DNA from: Minisyncoccota bacterium
GTDB taxonomy: Bacteria; Patescibacteriota; Minisyncoccia; Phycocordibacterales; JACRKE01
Reading direction: 5' to 3'
Length of the DNA: 64,000 nucleotides
Assembly (NCBI GenBank): GCA_041660505.1
Contig: JBAZWG010000001.1
Span: forward strand, 375,183 to 439,182
Part shown: one piece after another, positions 16,137 through 63,523 of the stretch
Position numbering within the stretch: the first letter of the stretch is position 1
Layout of the letters: every line of letters starts with the position of its first letter
The notes under the pieces: generated by a model
The model's database searches: none
Seen by the model: only the letters and a program-made list of their open reading frames with translations
What the model was told of the DNA's origin: nothing
Program-made: the position numbers and the translations under genes

Positions 16137-16883
16137 CTATTCTGGAGTAAGACCCCAAAGAATGTCGAAGATAACCTTAAAGGCAGTGACTATTTCCGGA
16201 ATAGCAATAATAATAGCTACAGGATTTGTATGGCTCAAAACCAGCACTTTATCATCATGGATGTCCAAACTATCTTGGAATTGATATCCTTCCGGCAGGT
16301 AGCGTGATTCGCGCAATAGTTGCGGGTCGGCAGGGTCACCGCTACGTGAGTCGGCAGTCAGTAACAATTTCGTACTGATTCCCCGCGCACTGCGCTCATA
16401 ACGAAACTTAAGAAAAAAATCTGGGTCGATTGATTCCCATGTCATCGAGGAAATAATCCGATACCAGCGATCTTTTTTCGATTTTGTCTCATATTCATCC
16501 AAAAGTGATTCGTAGAAAGCTGTAATCTCCTTCTTCCCTTCCAGGTATCTGATTCCCAGCTTCTCGGTTTTAATTTTTTCCTGAGTCGGCAAGGTTGGAA
16601 TAAGAGTCTCGAATAGATTCAGCTTCCTGGAAAAAGCACGCGCCAACCACTCCGGCCGTTGGGCGGCATAATTTCGCTTCCCATTCTTAAAATAGACATT
16701 AACCACACCTTTTTCTGCTAATCCCTGCAAGATAGGGTAGATTGTCGTGCGCCTTAGGCCGATCTCTTTGGCCACCGCCGACGCCTGCGAGGCACCGAGT
16801 TTAAGAAGGGCCAAATAGGCCTGTGCCTCTTGCTCGCCCAACCCTAGATTCTTCAATGCCCTGGTTTGTTCGTGATAAGTCAT
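16137..16883 (-). CDS. TrmB-family transcriptional regulator (copy 1), divergent from the Cys-rich protein gene
   Basis: N-terminal wHTH LGLGEQEAQAYLALLKLGASQASAVAKEIGLRRTTIYPILQGLAEKGVV typical of TrmB, plus C-terminal TrmB-like domain. Confidence 0.8.
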   Translation of the reverse strand: MTYHEQTRALKNLGLGEQEAQAYLALLKLGASQASAVAKEIGLRRTTIYPILQGLAEKGVVNVYFKNGKRNYAAQRPEWLARAFSRKLNLFETLIPTLPTQEKIKTEKLGIRYLEGKKEITAFYESLLDEYETKSKKDRWYRIISSMTWESIDPDFFLKFRYERSARGISTKLLLTADSRSGDPADPQLLRESRYLPEGYQFQDSLDIHDDKVLVLSHTNPVAIIIAIPEIVTAFKVIFDILWGLTPE

Positions 16884-27492: not shown

Positions 27493-28071
27493 TTACAATC
27501 TTTTCTTCGTCTGTCGAACGATAAGCTGTTCGATAAACACAAAGGCGAAGATAGCGATGAGGAAAATATAGCCCGCATTGCGCAGATACTGCTCGCCATC
27601 AGGTAGCCACGAGCCGGCACCGTAGCCTAATCCACCCACGATCAGCATCCAGACGAAGGTGGCGATGATATCGGCACGGAGCAATTCCGGATATGGTATC
27701 TTGAGCGATCCGGCGCGGAGGAGAATCGCATGGTGAAAGCCGTAAGCGAATTTAGAGAAGAAAATAGTATGAAAAGGACGCTCTTTAATATGATTATCAA
27801 AAGGGTGGGTCACCTTGCTCACCCATTTATTAAGCCTGTTGCCGGTCGCGTTGCGAATCCCCTTGCCGAATGAGTACCACACCGCATCGCCGAAGAGCAT
27901 GCAGATGAAGACGGTCATCGCCAAGTTGCCGAGATCGAGATAGCCCAAGCTTGCCACAAAGGCAGCGGTAAAGAGCACGATATCGCCCTCTACAAACATC
28001 CCCACACCCACAATAAAGTAAGCGATAGCCGGCGAAAGAGTAAGATATTGTAATAAAGTCAGATCACCCAT
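27493..28071 (-). CDS. DedA/VTT-family membrane protein
   Basis: 192 aa multi-TM protein with the FVEGD…DedA signature region. Confidence 0.75.
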   Translation of the reverse strand: MGDLTLLQYLTLSPAIAYFIVGVGMFVEGDIVLFTAAFVASLGYLDLGNLAMTVFICMLFGDAVWYSFGKGIRNATGNRLNKWVSKVTHPFDNHIKERPFHTIFFSKFAYGFHHAILLRAGSLKIPYPELLRADIIATFVWMLIVGGLGYGAGSWLPDGEQYLRNAGYIFLIAIFAFVFIEQLIVRQTKKRL

Positions 28072-28136
28072 AAGACACCCCTATTGTACCGCGTTTAGAA
28101 GCAAAAAGAGAAGCTTTCTGTCCACAGAGCGCACCC

Positions 28137-28176
28137 GAAGCTCGGCGTCTGGGAGTGCGACGCCGAGCTTCTTTTG
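28137..28176 (+). terminator. Terminator-like hairpin with no annotated upstream + strand gene
   Basis: gaagctcggcgtc-tgggagtgc-gacgccgagcttc followed by ttttgg. Possibly the 3' end of a small RNA. Confidence 0.4.
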
Positions 28177-28339
28177 GCGCGAACGAGACATATTCTTTCA
28201 TGAGAGAAGGAAAGTAAACCCCACCGCAACCTCCGTTGGTAAACGGCAGGGCGAGGAGAGAGCCCCGACTCGGCAGTACCGGTCGGGATAAATTCCTTCT
28301 CTCGTGAAAAGGCGCGTCGTGGAAAGGTGAGCGCGGGAA

Positions 28340-28375
28340 AAGGTTGAACCTTTTGAATCCCTAAGGTTCAACCTT
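28340..28375. repeat. Family-3 paired palindrome element (AAGGTTSAACCTT-N10-AAGGTTSAACCTT)
   Basis: aaggttgaacctt-ttgaatccct-aaggttcaacctt; same architecture at four other sites. Confidence 0.75.
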
Positions 28376-28789
28376 GAGGAGCGCTTTCTTTATCCAAGAC
28401 CCGCCCATGCATAGAAACTTCATTTTGAACCCGCGACAGAATGTCGTGAACTCAAAAATGGGGGCGAGCAGAAGATGTGCGGTCTTCGTACTCGCCCGAG
28501 TGCCCCGTAACGTGGTGCCTCCGGTTGATTTTCTCGCGCGTGTCGCGCATTGGTAAATCAACGTAAAACAATTAACTGAATTTTAAGAAGTTTCAGTAAA
28601 CTCTCGAGCAACTAACGTGTGCTCTGGTCTAAACGCTCTCTTGAATATGCATTACCCATGCACGCCTCAAGATGAGAAGGGTTTCCCGGGGCCTTTCGGC
28701 CACCAAACCGTTTTTAATTACGATTCGGCACTTCGACGACTGCTCACTTTCCGTGAGTTTGTCGCCGGACTCGCCAAGGAAAGGCGAGT

Positions 28790-29098
28790 TTATTCTCGCT
28801 CTTTTGCCACGAAGGTCCCGTCCTTTTGGACGTGAACTTCGTAAGAGTAACCCCCTTCAGGGTTACCCCGCTGGGTCGCATAACCCAGCTCAAAAGAGAA
28901 CGCCTGACCCAGGACATCGTACAACTCCCGGGTCAGACGTCGAACATCCTCCAGCTTCGAACCAGAGGACATTCCTACGCCGTTCTCTCCGACTTTATAT
29001 CGGGAGAGAACCTCACTCAGCTTTTCGGCCTGAGCTTCCGAAATTGAGTGGTGGACGTCTGTCCACCATTCAATTTCTATATCGTAGTCTGTCGACAT
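28790..29098 (-). CDS. Small hypothetical protein (GC-rich island)
   Basis: 102 aa ORF preceded by the perfect extended SD gaaaggaggtgaatcgagATG. Confidence 0.55.
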   Translation of the reverse strand: MSTDYDIEIEWWTDVHHSISEAQAEKLSEVLSRYKVGENGVGMSSGSKLEDVRRLTRELYDVLGQAFSFELGYATQRGNPEGGYSYEVHVQKDGTFVAKERE

Positions 29099-29403
29099 CT
29101 CGATTCACCTCCTTTCTGCCGATTTTTGCCCTGACCGCCGTCATGGCGAGTCAAGTCGGGCGCGGAGTCTCGGCACCGCAGTGATTGCTCACTAATAAAC
29201 CCGCAATCTTTCGGTTACGAACTTATTAGTGAGGGTGTCCAGCAAGATTGTGCAATCTTGCTGGACACCCTGATGAGCTGGATTTCCGCCAGCTCGCCGG
29301 CGGCAAGGTCTTCCTCTGTGCGAGAGGCAGGTTCTTGCGTCCCTGGCCGTTTATAAATCAAAACGACAAAAACTTTAGAAGCATAAACCTCCATTTCTGC
29401 AGG

Positions 29404-29438
29404 CAAGGTCTCTCCTCCAAGCGGGAGGTGAGTCCTTG
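29404..29438. repeat. Family-1 palindromic element (compact hairpin form), non-coding
   Basis: aaggtctctcctcc-aagcg-ggaggtgagtcctt. Confidence 0.75.
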
Positions 29439-29594
29439 CCTACCATTTGCTCCTACCACGCCGGAGCGTTAAGCGGTTTTGTGTAGGCACTCGCCCATGC
29501 GGATGGCTACCGCATTTCCCTGTGGTCTCGCTCGCGCATTACTGCGGAGTTCCCCACTCACCTCCGGGAACGAAGGGGGCTCACCAGCCAGGTC

Positions 29595-30017
29595 TCAACG
29601 TGCGCACATCGCGCACTTGCCCTGGTAGCCTGTGAGGTGGTGGTCGGGGCAATAAATATTGCCATACTCCGACCCGCACCCACAGCTCGGGCTGTCATGA
29701 GACCAGCCGGTGGGGAGCTTCTGCCCGCTCGACCTGCCGCCTGCCGCTTTTTCATCAGCGGTTTCGACGTGGTCGAGGACGTGAGCAGGAAGCTCCACCT
29801 CCTCGAGGCTCGCGCGCTCGAAAGCACGTCGGCAATCCTCTTCCGAACAGCGGAAGTAGGTGCTGACGCTCTTCTTGAGCTCGGCCGTCTTCAGAGACAG
29901 CGCGAGCTTGAGCGCCGCCAAGGTCTTGAACACCTCGGCGTGCGTAGCCTCGAAGCTCTTGAGCGCGGCCGTTGCTTCGGCCACCTCGCCCAAGAGCTCT
30001 TCGATTTTCTTCATCAT
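29595..30017 (-). CDS. Hypothetical protein with C-terminal Cys/His cluster (GC-rich island)
   Basis: 140 aa ORF, SD aaaggaggtgaatgATG, C-terminus CGCGSEYGNIYCPDHH…CAMC. Confidence 0.55.
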   Translation of the reverse strand: MMKKIEELLGEVAEATAALKSFEATHAEVFKTLAALKLALSLKTAELKKSVSTYFRCSEEDCRRAFERASLEEVELPAHVLDHVETADEKAAGGRSSGQKLPTGWSHDSPSCGCGSEYGNIYCPDHHLTGYQGKCAMCAR

Positions 30018-30131
30018 TCACCTCCTTTCGTGAAGATGCCATTTTTTCGGAACTAACGTGTCCGGGGCTCTGAACGCCTTTCTTTTTTCGATCGCGAAAA
30101 GAAAAGTAAAAAACGATCGGACGTTGCGGCC

Positions 30132-30779
30132 CTACCTCGTGGGGGTGGTCATCCTCACGAGGTAGTCGAGGTACTCCTCCGCCTTTGCGAGGCGAACGAG
30201 CACCTCTGCCCTACCGTTCACCCAGTCGACCCTTGCGGGCTCCTGGGTGAGTCGGTAGAGCACCCAGACGTCCCCGTCAAAGAGGATGGCCGCGGGGTTG
30301 AGCTTCTGCTCCAACCCCCGGATCCGCTCCTCGATCCGGAAGACGCGGCGCCGGAGCGCTTCGCCTTCCCGAATGGCTACCGCCTGTTCGGCGGTGAAGC
30401 GCGGGGGCAGGGCAATGCCCCACACCCGTGCCTCTGCCTCCAGGCGGCGCGCCTCGCGGAGGTAATCCACGAGGGCGCCGCCCTGGACCTCCAGCGGCTC
30501 CTGCTCCCCCGTTTGGGGGTTCAGAATCCGCTGGAACCGGCTGTCGACCCGGCGGCAGTCCCGGTAGTAATACCGGGACTGCCACCCAGGGTGGGCGAGG
30601 TCTAGATACCCTCGCCCCGGGTCAGCGGCCAGGAGCGCCGACGTCCTGGCCGTGAGGAGGATGAAGAGCTGCCGGAGCAACCCCTCATACCTCCTCGGGA
30701 TCCGCCTTTCGGCGCGTTTGCGCGCCAGCGGATCGTTCACGTCGATGGGATTCATAGTACCCATCCTTTCCAAGAGCAC
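30132..30779 (-). CDS. Hypothetical protein (GC-rich island)
   Basis: 215 aa ORF (GTG at 30779, or ATG at 30755 with a partial SD). GC-rich codon usage distinct from the flanks. Confidence 0.45.
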   Translation of the reverse strand: MLLERMGTMNPIDVNDPLARKRAERRIPRRYEGLLRQLFILLTARTSALLAADPGRGYLDLAHPGWQSRYYYRDCRRVDSRFQRILNPQTGEQEPLEVQGGALVDYLREARRLEAEARVWGIALPPRFTAEQAVAIREGEALRRRVFRIEERIRGLEQKLNPAAILFDGDVWVLYRLTQEPARVDWVNGRAEVLVRLAKAEEYLDYLVRMTTPTR

Positions 30780-31333
30780 GTTGCTCCTGAATTTAATCGC
30801 GAAAAAATAATTTTGATTCGTGTGTAAATTCAGAAGCCCTTCAGCTTTTTTGCGGAAAGCGGAAGGGTTCGTGCGAATTATGATATGTGTGCCGTATCAA
30901 AATTCTAATTGTGCCCAATCAGACGCCTGCATATCCGGGACTTTGGATGCTGGGGCAGGCCGCCGACTTGCCGGGGTAGATCGACCCGGCAGCGGCCGGG
31001 GAGTTTCCTGCGCGTTGGGCGCAGGTCTTCTCCCAGTAACTGGCCACGACCTCCTTGGTCGTGGCGATGGCCAATTTGACTTGATAGTCCAATATCCTTT
31101 TATCGAATAAATTTTCTGGTTTCATATATTTGTTATTTATTATTCTAATTCTTCCTTGTTCTCACCACAAGTTTTACTTGCGATGAGAATCAGGAGGAGG
31201 AGCGAGGATACTGTGCAGTATTTCGCTCCCCTCGTGAGTGCTTGTCCCCGTGCAGGGGACCTTTTTTGTGCTCGTTTCTTTTTTCCGAAAAAAGAAACGA
31301 TGCCGAAAGAAAAACTATTTAAGTTTGCGGGGG

Positions 31334-31666
31334 TTAGGCCCGCTTCAGCCCCTTGCAGCCGACGGGCTGGCCGTCGGCGCCCCTGACCAAGTCGCCCGGG
31401 GCGAACACGTCGCCCCGCCCGGCGACTGTCGGGTGAGCGGCCACCAGGCCGCTCACCACGTAACCCACCCCCTCCTCGGGGGCCGGGAGGCCAGTCACCT
31501 CCCCGTAGGAGGCACGGCAGGTGGGGAAGCCTGCCACCTCCTTGTCCGCCACGAAGGTGGCGGCGGTCCGGGCAACCTGCCCGGACGGGTCGATGGACCC
31601 GACCTGGGCGTTCCCGCCCAGGTCTAAAATGTTGATCCGGTGCGGGGTGAGGTTGACGAGACGCAT
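31334..31666 (-). CDS. Hypothetical protein (GC-rich island)
   Basis: 110 aa from MRLVNLTPHRINI…, SD ggaggaaagg 9 nt upstream of ATG. Confidence 0.5.
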   Translation of the reverse strand: MRLVNLTPHRINILDLGGNAQVGSIDPSGQVARTAATFVADKEVAGFPTCRASYGEVTGLPAPEEGVGYVVSGLVAAHPTVAGRGDVFAPGDLVRGADGQPVGCKGLKRA

Positions 31667-31838
31667 AATGCGTCCTTTCCTCCGATTTATGCCTCGGAGC
31701 ACGGCTTTGGATTCAAGACCACGTTGGGCCCTGAAATTTTCACTCGAATTTTCAAGTGGAAATTTCAGGGTAAAGGATATTTATAAGAACATTCTTCCGT
31801 GAACGTTTTCCTCACGACTAAAAACACAAGGTCGGTGT

Positions 31839-31903
31839 CCGAGGTCTCACCTCTGGCCTGTCTGCTTATTGCAGACTTGGGTTGGCCTGAGGAGAGACCT
31901 CGG
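31839..31903. repeat. Family-1 palindromic element (long-loop form), non-coding
   Basis: ccgaggtctcacctc-(35 nt)-gaggagagacctcgg. Confidence 0.75.
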
Positions 31904-32660
31904 ACGCGCAAACATTTTGCGTTCTTGGTCGTGAGGCTGAACATATGTTCAGCCTCCTTCTTTCCCTGTCGAACAACGCCTTGGCTATTTGCCTCGGACT
32001 TACTCGCTCGCAGGGTATTCTGTTGTCAAATAACCCGGTCGTTCTGTTGCATGCTATTACCCATACAACTTCAGATTCTCTTCGTTACTCCCCGCCTGCC
32101 ATCGCCTGAAGCTCAGGCTTTGGCGGGCAGGTCTCCTCAAAAGTTCTCTCCTCTTTTGGATTAACGATGCCGTTTGGTTCTCTCCTCACTTCTATCAGTG
32201 AGTGTCGGGGACGGAAGTTGGATGTCCTTCTGTCCCGACGCACTCATTGCTAGCGCATATACTGAATGTATCATTGCCTCCGCTTCTCTCTTTCTTAACC
32301 CTACTTGCCGGTTAGGGCGACCGTCCGGGGCTTTGGTATTGGCATACCTCGCCTTGTCCGGATCAGAGTTGAACGGTGTTACATTCTGTCGTATATGACC
32401 CTTGCGGGATTTTTGTAAAGACCTAATGCTTCCCTCTCCTCCTTGTCCGCCGGTGAGGCGGGTTATCTTATATAGAGAGAAGATTGTGTCCGACTTGCTG
32501 TCCGCTCCAATCTTCTATCTGTATTTTTTAACTGGCATAATCATACGCTAGCCTTGCCAGATTGTCAATACTATGTGATAGTTTATGGCATTTAGCGTCA
32601 TAAAGCCTTGATATTAGCCAAAATAGTGGCTTTATTGTGTTATCAGAGTGTCAAACTGTA

Positions 32661-32758: not shown

Positions 32759-33583
32759 ATGGGCGCAATATACAAAGAGAATCTGGTTCAGATAGGCTTA
32801 TCCGATAAGGAGGCGGTGGTCTATGAGGCCTTGCTCGGAGGTAAAGAGAACAGTATCGGCCAGTTATTGCATAAAATCCCCGAGATTAAGCGCCCCAATA
32901 TGTATGCCCTGCTCTATAGCCTTAAAGGCAAGGGGTTGGTGCAAGAGGTAGAGAAAAAGGGCAAAAAGGTCTTCACGCCGGAATCGCCCCAAAAGCTTGT
33001 CGACTTCGTCGATGCCAGAGGCTTCGAATATGAGCAAGCCAGGACAAATCTCGATTCCGCTCTCCCCTCTCTCATCTCGCAGTTCAATCTAGCCTCCGGC
33101 AAGCCGAACGTGCAGTTTTATGAGGGCGAGAAGGGTATGGAGAAAGTGGTCTTTGACTCGCTCACCTCAAAAACTGAAATACTTTCTTACGTCGACCACG
33201 AAGCGGTTGAGAAGTACTTCGCATCGTTCAACTCTCGCTATGTGGCCGAGCGCATAAAGAAAAATATTAAAAAGAAAATCATTGCGCTTGATACGCCCAG
33301 TATTCGCGAGGCGGCTAAGACGAGATATAATCCGGAATACACCGATGCCCGTGTTATCAGTGCCAGTAAATATGCGTTTGCGACAGTAATGCAAATCTAC
33401 GACGGCAAGGTGTCGTATCAAACATTAGACGAGAAGCAACTGGTCGGCGTAATAATTCAGGACGAGCGCATTTATAAAATGCATAAAGCTCTTTTCGAGT
33501 ACACGTGGGAGACGGCAGAGAATATTATGCCGCCTTCAACTCTTCCTGCTCTACCGACGCCTGATCTTCCCGCAGTAATGTAA
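32759..33583 (+). CDS. TrmB-family transcriptional regulator (copy 3)
   Basis: N-terminal wHTH IGLSDKEAVVYEALL…IPEIKRPNMYALLYSLKGKGLV plus C-terminal TrmB-like domain. 274 aa. Confidence 0.75.
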   Translation: MGAIYKENLVQIGLSDKEAVVYEALLGGKENSIGQLLHKIPEIKRPNMYALLYSLKGKGLVQEVEKKGKKVFTPESPQKLVDFVDARGFEYEQARTNLDSALPSLISQFNLASGKPNVQFYEGEKGMEKVVFDSLTSKTEILSYVDHEAVEKYFASFNSRYVAERIKKNIKKKIIALDTPSIREAAKTRYNPEYTDARVISASKYAFATVMQIYDGKVSYQTLDEKQLVGVIIQDERIYKMHKALFEYTWETAENIMPPSTLPALPTPDLPAVM

Positions 33584-36142: not shown

Positions 36143-36583
36143 CTAGCAGATATCAATGTCCTCTAGGATGCGGACGCGGCCTACATGCGCCTCCCTATCC
36201 ACTTCTACTGTTACCACGTCTAATTGCCAATCAGGCTCTTCGTCTTCGTCGTCTGGATATTTAGATAGTAAATAGACTTCTATCGTTCTGCGTAGCCTCT
36301 TGAGCTTCCAGGGGTGCACGTTCTCTTCGGCTTCATAGTCTTCGTCGTCTGGATCCGAGGAGAGACCTCCGCCTTTGCCGGAGGACTCTCCTCGGATTTT
36401 GTCGGCCGTCACCGATTTTACTTCGACAAAGTGCAAATTGCCGTCTTTTAGCGCGATAATGTCAATTTCACCATATTTCTTGCGGTAATTACGCTCTATT
36501 ACTGTATATCCATGGCGCTCCAGATAGGTCGTGGCGCAGTTCTCCCCTATTTGGCCGATAACTTGCTTGTCGGTTTGAGCCAT
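36143..36583 (-). CDS. yraN: YraN-family (UPF0102) endonuclease with in-frame family-1 element
   Basis: GENCATTYLERHGYTVIERNYR…GEIDIIALKDGNLHFVEVKS…. Insert encodes GESSGKGGGLSS. Confidence 0.8.
   Translation of the reverse strand: MAQTDKQVIGQIGENCATTYLERHGYTVIERNYRKKYGEIDIIALKDGNLHFVEVKSVTADKIRGESSGKGGGLSSDPDDEDYEAEENVHPWKLKRLRRTIEVYLLSKYPDDEDEEPDWQLDVVTVEVDREAHVGRVRILEDIDIC
36356..36395. repeat. Family-1 palindromic element in-frame inside yraN
   Basis: cgaggagagacctcc-gcctttgcc-ggaggactctcctcgg; near reverse-complement identical to the pcrA copy. Confidence 0.85.
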
Positions 36584-36720
36584 ATTTTATGGGTCAAGTC
36601 TTATATGCAATGTCTGTTATCCCCACTGTACACAGACTTATCCACAGTTTTCTGTGTGTAACGTTTATTTCTGTGGGCTGTCTTTATATTTAGAGACACA
36701 TTGGGTGTCTTAGACTTTGG

Positions 36721-37021: not shown

Positions 37022-39388
37022 TTGATGAGGCCCGGGCCGAAACCAAAGATATACATTTCTACTGAGTGGTCTAGCAACCTCGCTTATGCAGTTGGTCTTA
37101 TCACTGCTGATGGCTGTCTGTCAAAGGATGGCCGCCATATTGACTTTACATCAAAAGACCCAGATCAAATAGAAACCTTTATCAGGTGCCTCGGACTTCA
37201 CTCACTTGTTAGACCAAAGAAATCCGGTGCTGGAAGGTTTGCATTTCGAACCCAGTTTGGGAATGTATCGTTTTACAGATTTCTATTAGGCATTGGACTA
37301 ACGCCCGCAAAATCGAAAACTATTTCGAAACTTGAAATTCCCGACGAATATTTCTGGGATTTCATGCGTGGATATTTCGATGGTGACGGCACGAGCTTTT
37401 CGTATTTTGATCCGGTATTTCCTAAAAGCTATCGTTTTTATGTTGCTTTCGCTTCGGCAAGTGAGCCATATCTACTTTGGCTACAAGAGAAGGCATATAG
37501 GTCCGCAGGGTTAAAAGGCTACATTAACAGAGGCGTTAACCCTTCAAGCCTACAACTCAAGTATGCGAAGAAAGAAGCAATAGTCTTATGTCAAAAAATG
37601 TATTATGATGATAGCGCTCCCAGACTCCAAAGAAAATACGAGAAAATCTTGGATTCGATGAGCATTATTAACAGCAAACGCCGGGGTGGTGAAATTGGTA
37701 TACACGCAGCGTTCAGAACGCTGTGGGGGCAACCCCATGGAGGTTCAAGTCCTCTCTCCGGCACTTTTAACTCATTTCACGTGAAAAATAAGAAAGAATC
37801 TCCAGCTTACTATATCCCCTCCCATGTTCTGGGGGTTGTAACTACTTTACAAAAGGCCGGCTTCGAGGCATATCTCGTCGGTGGCTGTGTGCGCGATATA
37901 TTGATGGAGAACAAGCCAAAAGACTGGGATGTTACGACAAACGCCCGCCCGGAGCAGATCCAAGCCCTATTTAACGAGACTTTCTATGAAAACGAGTATG
38001 GCACGGTCGGCGTCGTGGTAGAAGACCTTTCACGTGAAAAGCTCAATATCGTTTCACAAGAAACGTTTGATGAGCTTTCACGTGAAAGCATGGAAGCCTT
38101 AGAGGTCGAACCTCGGGCTCCCAGAGGTTCGACCTCGGGCGCAGACCCAAGCCCGAAAGAGGTGATCGAGGTTACACCTTATAGGCTAGAAACCAAGTAT
38201 TCCAACTTTCGCCATCCGGACGCTGTCACCTTTAGCACCAGTCTGGGGGACGACCTGAAACGCCGGGATCTGACCATCAATGCCATCGCTTATGACCCCA
38301 ATAGCCCTAAAGGACAGTTTATAGACCCCTTTAACGGTCTAAAGGACATAAAGGACATGGTAATCCGCGCCGTAGGAGAGCCCTCGGACCGCTTCTGCGA
38401 GGATGCTTTGCGCATGATGCGTGCGGTGCGCCTGGCCGCCCAGCTCGGCTTTATGATTGACCCTGCGACCGAGCAAGCGATTGTTGCGAACAAGGCGCTT
38501 ATCACTAAGATAGCGGCCGAGCGTATCCATGACGAACTTATGAAGCTTTTAAATACCGAGTACGCGGTTGATGGCATTAGGTATCTAAAGATTACCGGCC
38601 TTCTTGAACTTATAATCCCTGAACTTCTTGAGGGGATAGGCATAGAGCAGAGAGGGGAGCATATCTATGACGTCTGGGAGCATAACCTCAAGTCGCTCGA
38701 ACACGCCGTCAAGAAGGGTTGGCCATTTCACGTGAGACTTGCAGTGCTGTTACACGACGTGGGCAAGCCGCGTACGCGCTTGCGCGATGAGGAGAGGCAA
38801 ATCTGGACATTCCATGGCCATGATGTGGTCGGTGGCAAGATGACCAAAAAGATACTTGAACGGCTCAAATTTTCACGTGAAATGATTGATAATATTTCTA
38901 AACTAGTGCGTTATCATCTTTTCTTCTCCGATACCGATAAAATCACGCTTTCTGCCGTACGCCGGATGATTCGCAACGTCGGCGCTGATTTGATATGGGA
39001 TTTAATGAAGGTGCGCCAGTGCGACAGAATAGGCACGGGCCGGCCCAAAGAAAGTCCTTATAGACTGCGCAAATACGAAGCGATGATAGAAGAGGCAATG
39101 CGCGATCCAATATCGGTGCAGATGTTAAAGATTGACGGCGCGAAGATAATGGAAATAGGGGAGATGGACCCCGGGCCGAAGATTGGCTGGGTGTTGCACG
39201 CCTTACTTGAGGAAGTACTAGAAGACCCGGCTAAGAATACGACAGAGTATCTGGAGACTCATACTAAAAAATTATTGGCACTTTCTGACAAGGAATTACA
39301 AGAACTCGGTGAAGCGGGAAAGGAGAAGAAGTCAGGGCTTGAAGAAGCGGCTATAGAAGAAATCAACAAGAGACACTACGTGAAGTAA
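37022..39388 (+). CDS. cca: CCA-adding enzyme (tRNA nucleotidyltransferase, HD domain) with an N-terminal LAGLIDADG homing-endonuclease-like domain and internal repeat-derived insert
   Basis: Residues ~1-210: two LAGLIDADG motifs (LAYAVGLITADGCL; FMRGYFDGDGTSF). Residues ~270-788: pol-beta nucleotidyltransferase (GGCVRDILM…DWDVTT), RRDLTINA, HD domain (LLHDVGKP). One continuous 788-aa ORF. Confidence 0.85.
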   Translation: MMRPGPKPKIYISTEWSSNLAYAVGLITADGCLSKDGRHIDFTSKDPDQIETFIRCLGLHSLVRPKKSGAGRFAFRTQFGNVSFYRFLLGIGLTPAKSKTISKLEIPDEYFWDFMRGYFDGDGTSFSYFDPVFPKSYRFYVAFASASEPYLLWLQEKAYRSAGLKGYINRGVNPSSLQLKYAKKEAIVLCQKMYYDDSAPRLQRKYEKILDSMSIINSKRRGGEIGIHAAFRTLWGQPHGGSSPLSGTFNSFHVKNKKESPAYYIPSHVLGVVTTLQKAGFEAYLVGGCVRDILMENKPKDWDVTTNARPEQIQALFNETFYENEYGTVGVVVEDLSREKLNIVSQETFDELSRESMEALEVEPRAPRGSTSGADPSPKEVIEVTPYRLETKYSNFRHPDAVTFSTSLGDDLKRRDLTINAIAYDPNSPKGQFIDPFNGLKDIKDMVIRAVGEPSDRFCEDALRMMRAVRLAAQLGFMIDPATEQAIVANKALITKIAAERIHDELMKLLNTEYAVDGIRYLKITGLLELIIPELLEGIGIEQRGEHIYDVWEHNLKSLEHAVKKGWPFHVRLAVLLHDVGKPRTRLRDEERQIWTFHGHDVVGGKMTKKILERLKFSREMIDNISKLVRYHLFFSDTDKITLSAVRRMIRNVGADLIWDLMKVRQCDRIGTGRPKESPYRLRKYEAMIEEAMRDPISVQMLKIDGAKIMEIGEMDPGPKIGWVLHALLEEVLEDPAKNTTEYLETHTKKLLALSDKELQELGEAGKEKKSGLEEAAIEEINKRHYVK
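37775..38902. repeat. Cluster of five TTTCACGTGAAA 12-bp palindromes inside the CCA gene
   Basis: Copies at 37775, 38028, 38076, 38726 (tttcacgtgaga) and 38891, in two different codon phases. Confidence 0.8.
38103..38140. repeat. Family-3 paired palindrome element, in-frame inside the CCA gene
   Basis: gaggtcgaacctcggg-ctccca-gaggttcgacctcggg, encoding LEVEPRAPRGSTSG. Confidence 0.7.
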
Positions 39389-39409: not shown

Positions 39410-39445
39410 AAGGTTCAACCTTAGGCATTCAAAAGGTTGAACCTT
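39410..39445. repeat. Family-3 paired palindrome element, intergenic
   Basis: aaggttcaacctt-aggcattcaa-aaggttgaacctt. Confidence 0.8.
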
Positions 39446-39453
39446 AAAATCGT

Positions 39454-40410
39454 ATGCTTACTGCCGACAAGTATATTGTGCGCGTCATAAACGATGCGCG
39501 ATTGCCCGACATTGAACTTTTTACCGATCCCGAACAGGGGATTGCTATTAGCGTAGAAGGAATTGCGATACCCACGGAACGCAACCGCGTAGCACGAAGC
39601 GCGAAAGAAATAATTCAACGCGCGCTAGGACTGCTCTCGCTCGATACGCCTAAGGCAATCGTCCACAACACTATCTCATTATTAAAACGCGAGCTCGCCG
39701 AACATTTTAGTAAAAAATCAGGTGTATCAAGCGCGCATACTGCCGTTATTAAATTTGCCTGGGATGAGGCACGCGGGCGAGTTGTGGCGATAGGCGAGAG
39801 CGATGGCGGTATAAAGAATTGCGCTTACAAAAAAGGGAAGTTTGGCCTCTTGGGTAAGGAATTATCGGCCGACCCCGGCGACATATTCATGCAATGTTCA
39901 CCGAGCATCTTATCCAACGTTGACGTGTCGGTAATGAAAGAGATTTTGTCTTTTCGCAAGCAACACGATTTGTCGCTTGAGCAAATTCGCCATTTACTCA
40001 TCGAATCCGCCCACAATAATCTCGAGAAGTTCCGCCACACCCCGCTCTATGACCCGCGCGACATGTCTGTTGTATTAATGGAATATGGTCCAGTTCGCGA
40101 ATTTGCCGGCAAGGTCTCTCCTCCCGAAAATATTTTCATGGGAGGTGAGACCTTAGAGAAGTCGCCGGCGAACCCTCTTCAGCAGTTTGGCTTCAGTGAT
40201 TTATTGTTACCCGAGGGCGCAACCAAGGACGACGCGCTCGTAAATTTACAGAAAGTTAGGAACAGGCTAGGGGAGTTAGGCTATGAAGCAAAGATAAAGC
40301 CGCACCACTATGCCGAATTACCCAAGCGTGGCGATCTGCAGAAAGTGGTCAAACGCGCACATGACATACTAGAAGCAGCAGAACTGCGCGAGTACCTAAA
40401 CAATATTTAG
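39454..40410 (+). CDS. Hypothetical protein with in-frame family-1 element
   Basis: 318 aa ORF; insert encodes AGKVSPPENIFMGGETLEKS. Confidence 0.5.
   Translation: MLTADKYIVRVINDARLPDIELFTDPEQGIAISVEGIAIPTERNRVARSAKEIIQRALGLLSLDTPKAIVHNTISLLKRELAEHFSKKSGVSSAHTAVIKFAWDEARGRVVAIGESDGGIKNCAYKKGKFGLLGKELSADPGDIFMQCSPSILSNVDVSVMKEILSFRKQHDLSLEQIRHLLIESAHNNLEKFRHTPLYDPRDMSVVLMEYGPVREFAGKVSPPENIFMGGETLEKSPANPLQQFGFSDLLLPEGATKDDALVNLQKVRNRLGELGYEAKIKPHHYAELPKRGDLQKVVKRAHDILEAAELREYLNNI
40111..40154. repeat. Family-1 palindromic element in-frame inside the hypothetical gene
   Basis: aaggtctctcctccc-gaaaatattttcat-gggaggtgagacctt. Confidence 0.8.
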
Positions 40411-40511: not shown

Positions 40512-41435
40512 CTACGACCTTGAGTGGAACGCTTTGTGCACCTCGCGCAACTGTTTATCAGTCACGTGAGTATAAATTTGGGTCGTTGAAATATTAGAGT
40601 GGCCGAGCATCGCCTGCACCGAACGTAAGTCTGCGCCATTACCGAGCAAGTCTGTAGCAAAGCTGTGGCGGATGACGTGGGGTGTAACTTTTTTAGAAAT
40701 TCCGGCTTTGATGGCGTAATGCTTGACGATGCGCTCAACCGAGCGAGAAGTGAGTGGTTCGGTGGAGATATTCACAGATTTTACTTTCAACTTTTTACTT
40801 TCAACTTTGCCAACTGCACTGTGAGACACGAACAGTGCGTCCCCGGCATCCCCGCGCTTATCAAGATAACTTTTCACTGCTTTTTTCGCCGCGTCGGTCA
40901 GGAACACCACGCGCACCTTGCCGCCCTTGCCTCTTATAGAAAATTCGTCGCGCTTCAGGTCTACTTTATCGATAGTCAGAGAACATAATTCAGAAACGCG
41001 CAGACCTGTCGAGAAAAGTAATTCTAGTATGGCCGTATCGCGCAAATTTTTAATATCCGTGCCCTGCGCCGACTTCATTAGTCGCTCAAGCTCGTCGTGA
41101 CTAATCAAATCCAGATGTCGTTCGCCGGTCTTAGCCAGTTCGATACGGTCTGGCGAGAGGGAAGCAATACTCTCCCGCACCATGTATTTCAAAAAAGAGC
41201 GTAAAGCGATAAGATGATAGTTCTGCGTGTTCTTCTGCAGATTTTTACGATTCAAAAAAAGTCTGTACTGCCTGACAATTTCATCAGTAATATCAGAGGG
41301 CACTTTAGCCTTCGAGAATTCAAAAAATGTCTTGAGATATCGATCATAATTCTCCACGGTCTTGAGCCCGCGCCCTTTCTCAATCTCCACATATTCAAGA
41401 AACCGTTGTTTCAAGTCAGGAATATTGTGCGACAT
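40512..41435 (-). CDS. Tyrosine site-specific recombinase XerC/XerD family
   Basis: N-terminal SAM-like domain and C-terminal catalytic box …HVIRHSFATDLLGNGADLRSVQAMLGHSNISTTQIYTHV (R…HxxR…Y). Confidence 0.85.
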   Translation of the reverse strand: MSHNIPDLKQRFLEYVEIEKGRGLKTVENYDRYLKTFFEFSKAKVPSDITDEIVRQYRLFLNRKNLQKNTQNYHLIALRSFLKYMVRESIASLSPDRIELAKTGERHLDLISHDELERLMKSAQGTDIKNLRDTAILELLFSTGLRVSELCSLTIDKVDLKRDEFSIRGKGGKVRVVFLTDAAKKAVKSYLDKRGDAGDALFVSHSAVGKVESKKLKVKSVNISTEPLTSRSVERIVKHYAIKAGISKKVTPHVIRHSFATDLLGNGADLRSVQAMLGHSNISTTQIYTHVTDKQLREVHKAFHSRS

Positions 41436-45389: not shown

Positions 45390-46148
45390 ATGATTAAGCC
45401 AATCTTAAGTAAGCTCGGTTTGAGTGAGAGCGAGATCGCTGTGTACAGTCAGGTGGTAAGGCATCGGCTTTGCACACCGGCACTGATTGCCCGCGAGACC
45501 AAGTTAAATAGACCGACGGTATACAACATCTGTAAGAAATTGGTCGCCCGCGGCCTACTTATTGAGGATTTGGGTGATAAGACCTTAAAATTACTGCCTA
45601 CAGCGCCAGATGAACTCGCTTCTATATTAAAACGGGACGAAGAGGAACTTAAAAATAAAGCACTGGTGCTGGAGCAATTGGGTAATGAGCTCGCGCTTAT
45701 GAAGAGCAGCAGGACGTACCCCGTGCCAAGAGTACGTTTTATAGAACAGGATCGGCTCAATGCGTATATGCATACACAAACGCCGACGTGGAACACGAGC
45801 ATCGGTAATTACGATAATATCTGGTGGGGATTCCAAGACCATACTTTTGTGGAGCAGTACAAAGAGTATATTTTGTGGTTCTGGAGGACAGCTGATGAGA
45901 GTATTAGCCTTAATTTACTTAGCAATAGCGCGCCAATAGAGGAGGAGATGAAAACAGAGAATTTCACACGTCGCCACATAAAGCCGTGGGACAAGGGCAT
46001 GATGTTTAGTGCCACGACATGGGTATTAGGCGACTATCTCGTTATGATTGTAACCGACAAAGAGCCGCATTACCTTGTAGAAATCCACGACGAACGCATG
46101 GCGGGGAACTTTCGCGAGTTGTTTAAGAACATTTGGGGATTGATTTAG
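45390..46148 (+). CDS. TrmB-family transcriptional regulator (copy 2), divergent from Cys-rich paralog B
   Basis: N-terminal wHTH LGLSESEIAVYSQVV…IARETKLNRPTVYNICKKLVARGLL. Confidence 0.75.
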   Translation: MIKPILSKLGLSESEIAVYSQVVRHRLCTPALIARETKLNRPTVYNICKKLVARGLLIEDLGDKTLKLLPTAPDELASILKRDEEELKNKALVLEQLGNELALMKSSRTYPVPRVRFIEQDRLNAYMHTQTPTWNTSIGNYDNIWWGFQDHTFVEQYKEYILWFWRTADESISLNLLSNSAPIEEEMKTENFTRRHIKPWDKGMMFSATTWVLGDYLVMIVTDKEPHYLVEIHDERMAGNFRELFKNIWGLI

Positions 46149-62450: not shown

Positions 62451-63523
62451 TTATCTTTTAAAGTTCTCCCAAAACATCACTAGCAATTTTTCGCGTAATT
62501 CGTACGCGTCAGCATGAGAGAGAACACCGAGATACGAGTTAAGCGACCCAAACAGTGCTTTCTCTGATAATATCCCGTCCTTGTATTCGGCAATTCTTTC
62601 TTCTAGCTTCCGGAATATCCGTCGCCTCGTTTTCGTTCGTAAGGTAATATGGTGTGGTCGTACGACGTAGCCTAGAAAGTCGACGCCTTGATGAAATGTA
62701 CGAAACTTTATCTTTTGTGGGTGCATTTGCAACTTCAACTTTTTGTTCAGAAAAACTTGCATTTTGTCTAGCAAATCCGCAAGATACGACTTGTCTGTTG
62801 AAACAATAATAAAATCATCGGTATAGCGCATATAATTCCTTACTTTAAGCTCATGTTTCATGAATTGATCGAACTCGTTCATATAGATATTAGCGAAAAG
62901 CTGGCTGGTGAGATTACCGATCGGCGCGCCTTTTCTACTCTCTCTCTCTCTCTCTCTCGATTACTGCTGACAGTATAACTTTCGATAAGATCTTCGAGGA
63001 GCCAGACGGCTTTTTCATCTTTAATCTTTTTCTGCAAAAGTCCGACCAGTATATCGTGGTCGATCGAGTCGAAGAACTTCTTAATATCGCACTTGAGCAC
63101 CCAGCACTGATGCGCGTTGTTTCTGCTCTCCCGCCGTAGTATCGTAGTGAGTTTCCCCACGGCTTTATGTGTTCCTTTACCAACCCTGCAGGAATATGAA
63201 GCGGGAATGAATGTCGGCTCGAAGATACTATTAAGAACTTGATATACAGCATGATGAAGGACGCGATCTCGAACGGTCGCCTTGTTAATATTACGAAGCT
63301 TGGGGTCGCGTATCCAAAAACTTTCGTATCTATCGTGCCGATATGTCTGATCACGAAGTTCACGATGTAAGGCAAAAATGTTCTGCTCCAGATTCTGCTC
63401 ATATTCAGACACGCCTTTCTTGTGTTTCTTGTCTGCCTTAAACTTGTCCCATGCAATAAACAAATTCTCGGGACTAATTATTAACTCAAAAATGTTTCTG
63501 CAAACTTTCATAAAATCATGCAA
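62451..63523 (-). CDS. Diversity-generating-retroelement reverse transcriptase (Brt-like), reading frame interrupted at a (GA)10 tract
   Basis: N part (63523-62879): NLFIAWDKF, …IPASYSCRVGKGTHKAV, LKCDIKKFFDSIDHDIL. C part (to 62451): GAPIGNLTSQLFANIYMNEFDQF (DGR-specific SQ motif 4), YMRYTDDFII (YxDD), FLGYVV. The two parts are joined in frame only if the dinucleotide tract has 11 rather than 10 units. Confidence 0.8.
62939..62958. repeat. (TC)10 / (GA)10 dinucleotide microsatellite inside the RT gene
   Basis: ttttctac(tc)10gattac; encodes (RE)n in the RT frame and sits in the loop between RT motifs 3 and 4. Confidence 0.95.

Follow-up and report, generated by a model that had tools for sequence, protein, structure and literature searches.

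Why should one gene carry the same 12-bp palindrome again and again? The question is raised by a stretch of 64,000 nucleotides from a Minisyncoccota bacterium (assembly GCA_041660505.1, contig JBAZWG010000001.1, positions 375,183 to 439,182 of the forward strand; hereafter the window), in which the palindrome TTTCACGTGAAA recurs within and at the start of cca, the gene for the CCA-adding enzyme. We propose, with a probability of about 0.85, that the palindromes are parS sites, the predicted loading sites of the chromosomal partition protein ParB (Spo0J). What can be read directly is the identity of the sequence, its clustering, its conservation across species at the level of DNA, and its origin context.

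The exact 12-mer occurred at 37775, 38028, 38076, and 38871, and once with a single mismatch (TTTCACGTGAGA) at 38726. With up to one mismatch allowed, all matches fell within 37775-38882 and none elsewhere in the 64 kb; chance predicts 0.27 matches per 64 kb, and none of 100 dinucleotide-preserving shuffles reached five. An earlier description of this DNA, made from its letters and open reading frames (ORFs) and referred to here as the sequence-only reading, had likewise counted four exact copies and one with a mismatch, but it placed the last at 38891 and overlooked a sixth, degenerate copy, cGTTTCACAAGAAACg, which occupies 38051-38064, the exact midpoint of copies 2 and 3. Copy 2, this middle copy, and copy 3 together form a triple array at 24-bp spacing. 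The sites and their host gene are as follows:

37781..39388, plus strand: cca, tRNA nucleotidyltransferase (CCA-adding enzyme), 535 amino acids, with Pfam domains PolyA_pol, PolyA_pol_RNAbd, HD, and tRNA_NucTran2_2
37775..37786: parS-like site 1 (caTTTCACGTGAAAaa), 11 nt past the 3' end of a tRNA-Leu gene; its GTG is the cca start codon
38028..38039: parS-like site 2, first of the triple array, codons L-S-R-E
38051..38064: degenerate middle site GTTTCACAAGAAAC, outer G..C kept, centre CG/GT altered, codons V-S-Q-E-T
38076..38087: parS-like site 3, last of the triple array, one 24-bp step past the middle site, codons L-S-R-E
38726..38737: parS-like site 4 (TTTCACGTGAGA, one mismatch), HD domain codons P-F-H-V-R; relatives have a site at the homologous position
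38871..38882: parS-like site 5, codons K-F-S-R-E-M, the commonest site position in the class

Outside the array, the window holds one further 8-bp core, TCACGTGA. The sequence-only reading was right that there is only one, at 40562 rather than 40564. We rejected it as a member of the array: its match ends with the 8-bp core, and what it encodes is YTHV, a conserved motif at the C terminus of a Xer-type tyrosine recombinase.

The palindrome TTTCACGTGAAA coincides with the middle 12 bp of TGTTTCACGTGAAACA, the consensus of canonical chromosomal parS, a centromere-like element to which ParB/Spo0J binds across most bacterial phyla (table in PMC7022226; contacts in 10.1101/724823). Against the full 16-mer, the window sites matched at 12-13 of 16 bases, and the central 12 were exact in four sites. 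The codon phases FHV / LSRE / LSRE / FHV / FSRE, correctly assigned by the sequence-only reading in the frame of ORF 37022-39388, follow from the palindrome itself. One of its frames, as read directly from the sequence, is xxT TTC ACG TGA and includes a stop; whichever strand is coding, the motif can hence appear only as F-H-V-K or x-S-R-E, which is why the window copies use two phases.

For the comparison of related loci, GTDB species representatives supplied 80 cca loci (52-58% protein identity) and the closest metagenomic homologues six more (60-81% identity), for a total of 86 loci and 1.30 Mb. The homologues belong to the candidate phyla radiation (CPR), in Parcubacteria/Paceibacteria lineages such as Vogelbacteria and Yonathbacteria. 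Across this sample the exact 10-mer core TTCACGTGAA was found 92 times, as compared to 1.4 occurrences expected from base composition. The flanks of the core were left free in the search, and the next two bases outward were T in 88% and G in 52%; these preferences give (t)GTTTCACGTGAAAC(a), that is, the parS consensus rebuilt. The perfect parS 16-mer was present in several of the related loci. Sites with no more than one mismatch to the 12-mer numbered about 202, of which 187 lay between -2000 and +2000 of the cca start; their density peaked at 9.9 per 10 kb near the start and was at most 0.44 beyond 3 kb. At least one site was found in 57 of the 62 loci having enough upstream sequence. Rather than being frequent and evenly spread, a distribution that the sequence-only reading had held would speak against it, the motif was rare and specific to the locus, in the window as well as across the 1.3 Mb of related DNA.

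Upstream sites in the relatives were mostly within the divergent UPF0102/YraN gene, as codons VSRET, VSCET, or MFHVKQ. Within cca the motif spanned about 30 codon columns across species, almost always in the S-R-E phase, and only the two open phases were used; the position of copy 5 was the commonest (24 of 87 genes). In the closest relatives (74-81% protein identity) the overall site layout of the window was preserved. The spacer site 8-12 nt past tRNA-Leu was the same exact 12-mer in loci L081, L082, L083, and L085, while the bases flanking it differed. The triple array at 24-bp steps was likewise kept, and its middle member had a CACAAG or CACATG centre in five of the six, L087 being the exception. 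An F-H-V-R-L site was also present in the closest relatives, and four of them had the K-F-S-R-E site, with FSND encoded there in L083 and L085.

Conservation of this kind could in principle reflect the peptide. The codons of the K-F-S-R-E column were examined in a full codon alignment of the 87 cca genes, 22 of which encode F-S-R-E there. Serine was TCA in 21 of the 22 (25% background in the same genes), arginine CGT in 17 (23%), glutamate GAA in 21 (57%), and phenylalanine TTT in 21 (64%); these counts come from mutually related sequences and are not independent events, and synonymous sites should be saturated at 52-58% protein identity. The other genes encode FPKK, YPKK, FSND, and similar peptides at this column. 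With synonymous codons fixed and the peptide variable, the peptide follows the DNA motif and not the reverse. DNA-level conservation apart from the encoded peptide is thus seen in the fixed codons, in the non-coding spacer that holds the 12-mer, and in the roughly 30 codon positions at which the motif occurs. The sequence-only reading had placed the constraint on the DNA rather than the peptide, a point that the fixed synonymous codons and the 12-mer kept in the relatives' non-coding tRNA-cca spacer bear out.

The triple array occupies a segment of the enzyme that most homologues lack:

38018..38161, plus strand: 48-residue surface-loop expansion of the head domain (cca residues 80-127), carrying the triple array

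In an alignment to the Bacillus stearothermophilus enzyme (PDB 1MIV), residues 80-127 stand in for four residues between two head-domain strands. The loop was 12-13 amino acids long in 65 of the 86 homologues. It was expanded by more than 20 residues in 12 homologues, ten of which hold one to four parS-like sites in the expansion, typically at 24-bp steps, and the alignment showed SRE, SQE, SHE, and TRE repeats in the expanded loops. The expansion thus appears to be a dispensable carrier of extra sites, existing mainly for them. A bolder proposal, which we advance only tentatively and would not yet favor, is that the centromere and replication origin of Paceibacteria are built into and around the essential cca gene, and that such lineage-specific expansions, with S-R-E every eight codons, were fixed for the parS sites they add and not for a protein function. 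If so, what selection favored in this protein insertion would be its DNA. Loading of ParB over the start codon might also couple the expression of cca and tRNA-Leu to the replication and segregation cycle.

The same loop expansion contains a second palindromic unit at 38102-38140, composed of GAGGTCGAACCTCGGGC, 5 nt, and GAGGTTCGACCTCGGGC. Its 13-nt arms are each nearly self-complementary and are mutual reverse complements. The unit encodes ALEVEPRAPRGSTSG, a peptide stretch common only to the window protein and the homologue P0005/L084.

A cluster of parS sites would be expected near a replication origin, and several features place a probable oriC beside cca. Upstream, next to the divergent neighbor of cca, is a pair of DnaA boxes:

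36617..36646, plus strand: DnaA-box pair (TTATCCCCA, TTATCCACA), 21 bp apart (36617, 36638), a probable oriC element
36143..36583, minus strand: UPF0102/YraN-family gene, the conserved divergent neighbor of cca

In relatives, a DnaA-box pair 20-21 bp apart adjoining the UPF0102 gene was conserved between -2100 and -350 relative to cca. Perfect DnaA boxes (TTATCCACA) were enriched more than 10-fold over the rest of the loci, with 49 in the 1.5 kb upstream of cca and 19 at +1500 to +2000. These upstream and downstream clusters suggest a bipartite oriC flanking cca in Paceibacteria. GC skew was lower upstream than downstream of cca in 39 of 41 loci, and the cumulative G-C minimum of the window lay at 36-45 kb. 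Third-codon-position skew on the coding strand was higher in minus-strand than in plus-strand genes upstream (p = 2e-11) and higher in plus-strand than in minus-strand genes downstream of cca (p = 8e-8). Replication forks moving apart from the 5' region of cca would be expected to leave such a strand-controlled switch. The distance between cca and dnaA-dnaN is 23-43 genes in eight Parcubacteria genomes from the literature (Nelson & Stegen 2015, Table S1), which makes cca origin-proximal on any reading. With moderate confidence, we consider an oriC adjoining cca at the window locus probable. Few copies, clustered at the presumed origin, is the arrangement known for parS, and it was found in the 64-kb window and in the 86 related loci alike.

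By analogy with characterized systems, ParB dimers would recognize each of the five or six palindromes, bind cytidine triphosphate (CTP), close into clamps, and slide over the neighboring few kilobases. A partition complex would then form beside the origin and load SMC, and ParA, where present, would drive origin segregation. The sequence-only reading had offered, among other ideas, that the array is bound by a dimeric regulator or nucleoid protein. The nucleoid-protein suggestion appears essentially right, ParB being such a protein, although the motif was not recognized as the probable parS.

Several observations weigh against this interpretation. The base just outside the 12-mer was G in only three of the 12 window half-sites, and an invariant arginine of ParB contacts the G directly outside the 12-mer (10.1101/724823); the only site with both outer G/C bases is the one with an altered centre. 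Loss of the outer G may mean reduced affinity for a canonical ParB, with lower-affinity sites acting collectively, or a ParB of this clade with a shifted preference. No ParB or ParA gene was found in the 64-kb window by motif regular expressions, by Pfam searches of about 50 ORFs, or by NCBIfam searches of ten unassigned ORFs, and tblastn with B. subtilis Spo0J and Soj sequences returned no match in the window and 88 loci. The origin call, moreover, is a prediction from sequence statistics, and dnaA does not lie in the window.

The search for a partner also covered other genes. DnaA and DnaN genes were not found in the window by motif regular expression, Pfam, or NCBIfam, and no ParB, ParA, DnaA, or DnaN gene was found within 10 kb of cca in the relatives. 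A GERRxRA regular expression run on the loci returned one ORF, which was rejected as non-ParB. Among 17 Parcubacteria genomes, COG1475 (the ParB/Spo0J family) was present in 13 and smc in 14; COG1192 (ParA/Soj) was absent from the core-gene table (Nelson & Stegen 2015, Table S1). A ParB in the lineage is therefore supported by the literature, and we infer that one is encoded in the window's own genome.

The host gene itself required some revision. The sequence-only reading had placed the copies in cca and treated ORF 37022-39388 (788 codons) as one gene, a CCA-adding enzyme with a fused LAGLIDADG domain. This ORF is a mechanical read-through and not a fusion protein; a tRNA gene intervenes, and cca starts inside copy 1, at GTG 37781. 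The Joint Genome Institute (JGI) has an identical 535-amino-acid protein called on a 719-kb contig. Two further features precede cca:

37022..37679, plus strand: LAGLIDADG endonuclease-like ORF, free-standing, neither part of the array nor fused to cca
37680..37764, plus strand: tRNA-Leu(CAG), between the LAGLIDADG ORF and cca (ARAGORN; Rfam 52.9 bits)

The order of genes is UPF0102/YraN (minus strand); tRNA-Pro, tRNA-Gly, and tRNA-Arg (minus strand); the LAGLIDADG ORF; tRNA-Leu; cca; a gene of 318 residues; and the Xer-type recombinase (minus strand). With the exception of the LAGLIDADG ORF, this order was kept in the closest relatives, and the tRNA-Leu-cca arrangement was also present in L081, L084, L085, and L087. 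The UPF0102 gene has parS sites in many relatives; a scan of the window's copy for degenerate sites found none.

No stop codon closes the LAGLIDADG ORF itself, and its frame remains open across tRNA-Leu, through 37780 and into cca. The full ORF was present only in the window genome, with a 55-amino-acid remnant just upstream of tRNA-Leu in L087/L088. Together these suggest that a free-standing homing endonuclease gene beside the origin was acquired recently or is decaying. The GTG of cca is 17 nt past the tRNA-Leu 3' end and has no visible Shine-Dalgarno sequence (window 37765-37783), an arrangement kept in L081, L084, L085, and L087; tRNA-Leu and cca may be co-transcribed, with the 5' end of the mRNA produced by tRNA processing. 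Directly past the cca stop codon, at 39410-39445, an inverted repeat (AAGGTTCAACCTT, 10 nt, AAGGTTGAACCTT) probably forms a terminator-like hairpin. The 318-residue gene that follows directly downstream (39454-40410) is syntenic in the closest relatives and had no Pfam or NCBIfam match.

Farther from cca, the window has features of its own. A 4-kb stretch at 28000-32000 has a G+C content of 0.55-0.58 as compared to about 0.48 elsewhere, contains short ORFs without a Pfam match, and may be foreign or non-coding. Two adjacent minus-strand ORFs at 62451-63523 each match part of the RVT_1 reverse-transcriptase domain and look like a split or frameshifted retroelement of the group II intron or retron type. 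Three paralogous TrmB-like helix-turn-helix (HTH) regulators are encoded within the 64 kb (16137-16883, 32759-33583, and 45390-46148), and similar genes lie near cca in relatives. Several hexamer palindromes are strongly avoided window-wide (GGGCCC, observed once against 12 expected; ACTAGT, CTATAG, GCTAGC, GGTACC, and CCTAGG), which may be the footprint of restriction-modification systems.

Could something other than ParB be responsible for the array? The palindromes might instead be operators through which an ordinary dimeric transcription factor, such as a TrmB-like HTH protein, a type common in the genomes of this group, regulates tRNA-Leu and cca. Site 1 overlaps the cca start codon only 11 nt past tRNA-Leu, as an operator might, and the window and relatives both have TrmB-like genes nearby; at about one per 21 kb in the window, however, their proximity is expected by chance. 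Sites that extend across upwards of 1 kb of coding sequence, and in relatives into the divergent UPF0102 gene, are not operator-like, and the class-wide consensus is the exact universal parS 16-mer. We consider operators improbable. A role in nucleic-acid structure, either an mRNA hairpin affecting translation or stability of cca or a DNA cruciform at the origin, is less probable still. The 60-bp triple array is an imperfect palindrome, and the region 38027-38088 folds as a long hairpin (as DNA, -22.6 kcal/mol, with z = -7.7 relative to shuffled sequences); relatives' spacers also retain partial complementarity despite their different sequences. A lone 12-mer, on the other hand, yields a stem of only 4 bp, and conservation extends to single sites at many positions, including an untranslated spacer and genes that run in either direction. 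Any three symmetric palindromic sites would fold in this way as a by-product, which is how we regard the triple-array hairpin, and L087 has the sites without the hairpin. Neither operators nor structure would explain the exact universal parS consensus or the turnover of sites over many positions in two divergent genes.

The sequence-only reading had also offered two enzymatic explanations. A cluster of targets for a restriction-modification system or an orphan methyltransferase is suggested by the CACGTG centre, a classical type II palindrome, in a window that strongly avoids some other palindromes of that length, such as GGGCCC. CACGTG, however, occurred at close to its expected frequency (11 observed in the window, about 13-14 expected), and the conserved unit spans 12-16 bp and is bound to one locus across species that would differ in their restriction-modification systems; we regard this explanation as very unlikely. 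The other, recognition or homing sites of the neighboring LAGLIDADG endonuclease, we find barely credible, even with that ORF 100 bp upstream and in the same frame. The fusion on which it was based dissolves with tRNA-Leu in between, and the ORF is missing from L081-L085, close relatives that retain the sites. It also contains two LAGLIDADG motifs, and its product would hence be a monomer without need for palindromic targets; homing sites, moreover, are normally single and are disrupted by insertion.

A parS cluster near an origin is in itself a well-known and expected kind of element. What is new is the lineage, the housing of the cluster in cca and UPF0102 and not near parB, and the in-frame S-R-E arrays in an expanded enzyme loop. 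We found no literature on parS, ParB, or oriC in Patescibacteria, CPR, or Saccharibacteria beyond a core-gene table with COG1475. The sites would provide a sequence landmark for the centromere, and probably also the replication origin, of a major uncultured bacterial class. Such a landmark could be used to orient and check metagenome-assembled genomes, to estimate replication rates from read coverage, and to design the first ParB chromatin immunoprecipitation (ChIP) or plasmid-stabilization tools for cultivable Patescibacteria. More generally, the in-frame S-R-E arrays would illustrate how the need for a DNA-binding site can shape protein sequence, a consideration relevant to the reading of lineage-specific insertions in conserved enzymes.

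Among known systems, the Noc-binding sites (NBS, TATTTCCCGGGAAATA) of Firmicutes are related 16-bp palindromes bound by a ParB paralogue, and some window sites share with them an A instead of G at the second base. They differ in having C at base 7 (a CCCGGG centre), where all window sites keep A (a CACGTG centre); we rejected NBS identity on these specificity bases (10.1101/724823). NBS are also scattered round the chromosome, avoiding the terminus, and are not clustered at the origin, and Noc is restricted to Firmicutes (10.1101/724823). An in-frame palindromic DNA within a surface-exposed part of an essential protein is reminiscent of another class of element as well. Rickettsia palindromic elements are selfish mobile repeats of 100-150 bp, inserted in frame and dispersed over many protein genes. 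The motif described here, by contrast, is a predicted protein-binding site of 12-16 bp at one locus. A mobile element of that kind was rejected, since no copies occurred outside the cca segment in the 64 kb and the sites of relatives are confined to cca, UPF0102, and spacers.

In its origin context, the locus resembles the bipartite oriC that flanks a gene in some bacteria, for example dnaA in B. subtilis or Helicobacter. Shared features are DnaA-box clusters on both sides of one gene and a switch in strand skew; here the flanked gene is cca and not dnaA, and the window itself has only the upstream box pair. The closest comparison is with chromosomal parS, as in the Spo0J sites of Bacillus subtilis and the parS of Caulobacter. 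From these the window differs in that a single gene, cca, holds or adjoins all of its copies over 1.1 kb, three of them spaced by 24 bp where the protein has a lineage-specific expanded loop, and in that its genome has mostly lost the outer G/C of the 14-mer and parB is not adjacent. It shares with them an identical central 12 bp, with the full 16-mer in relatives, and the presence of several copies clustered near the origin, often within coding genes, and conserved over distant species.

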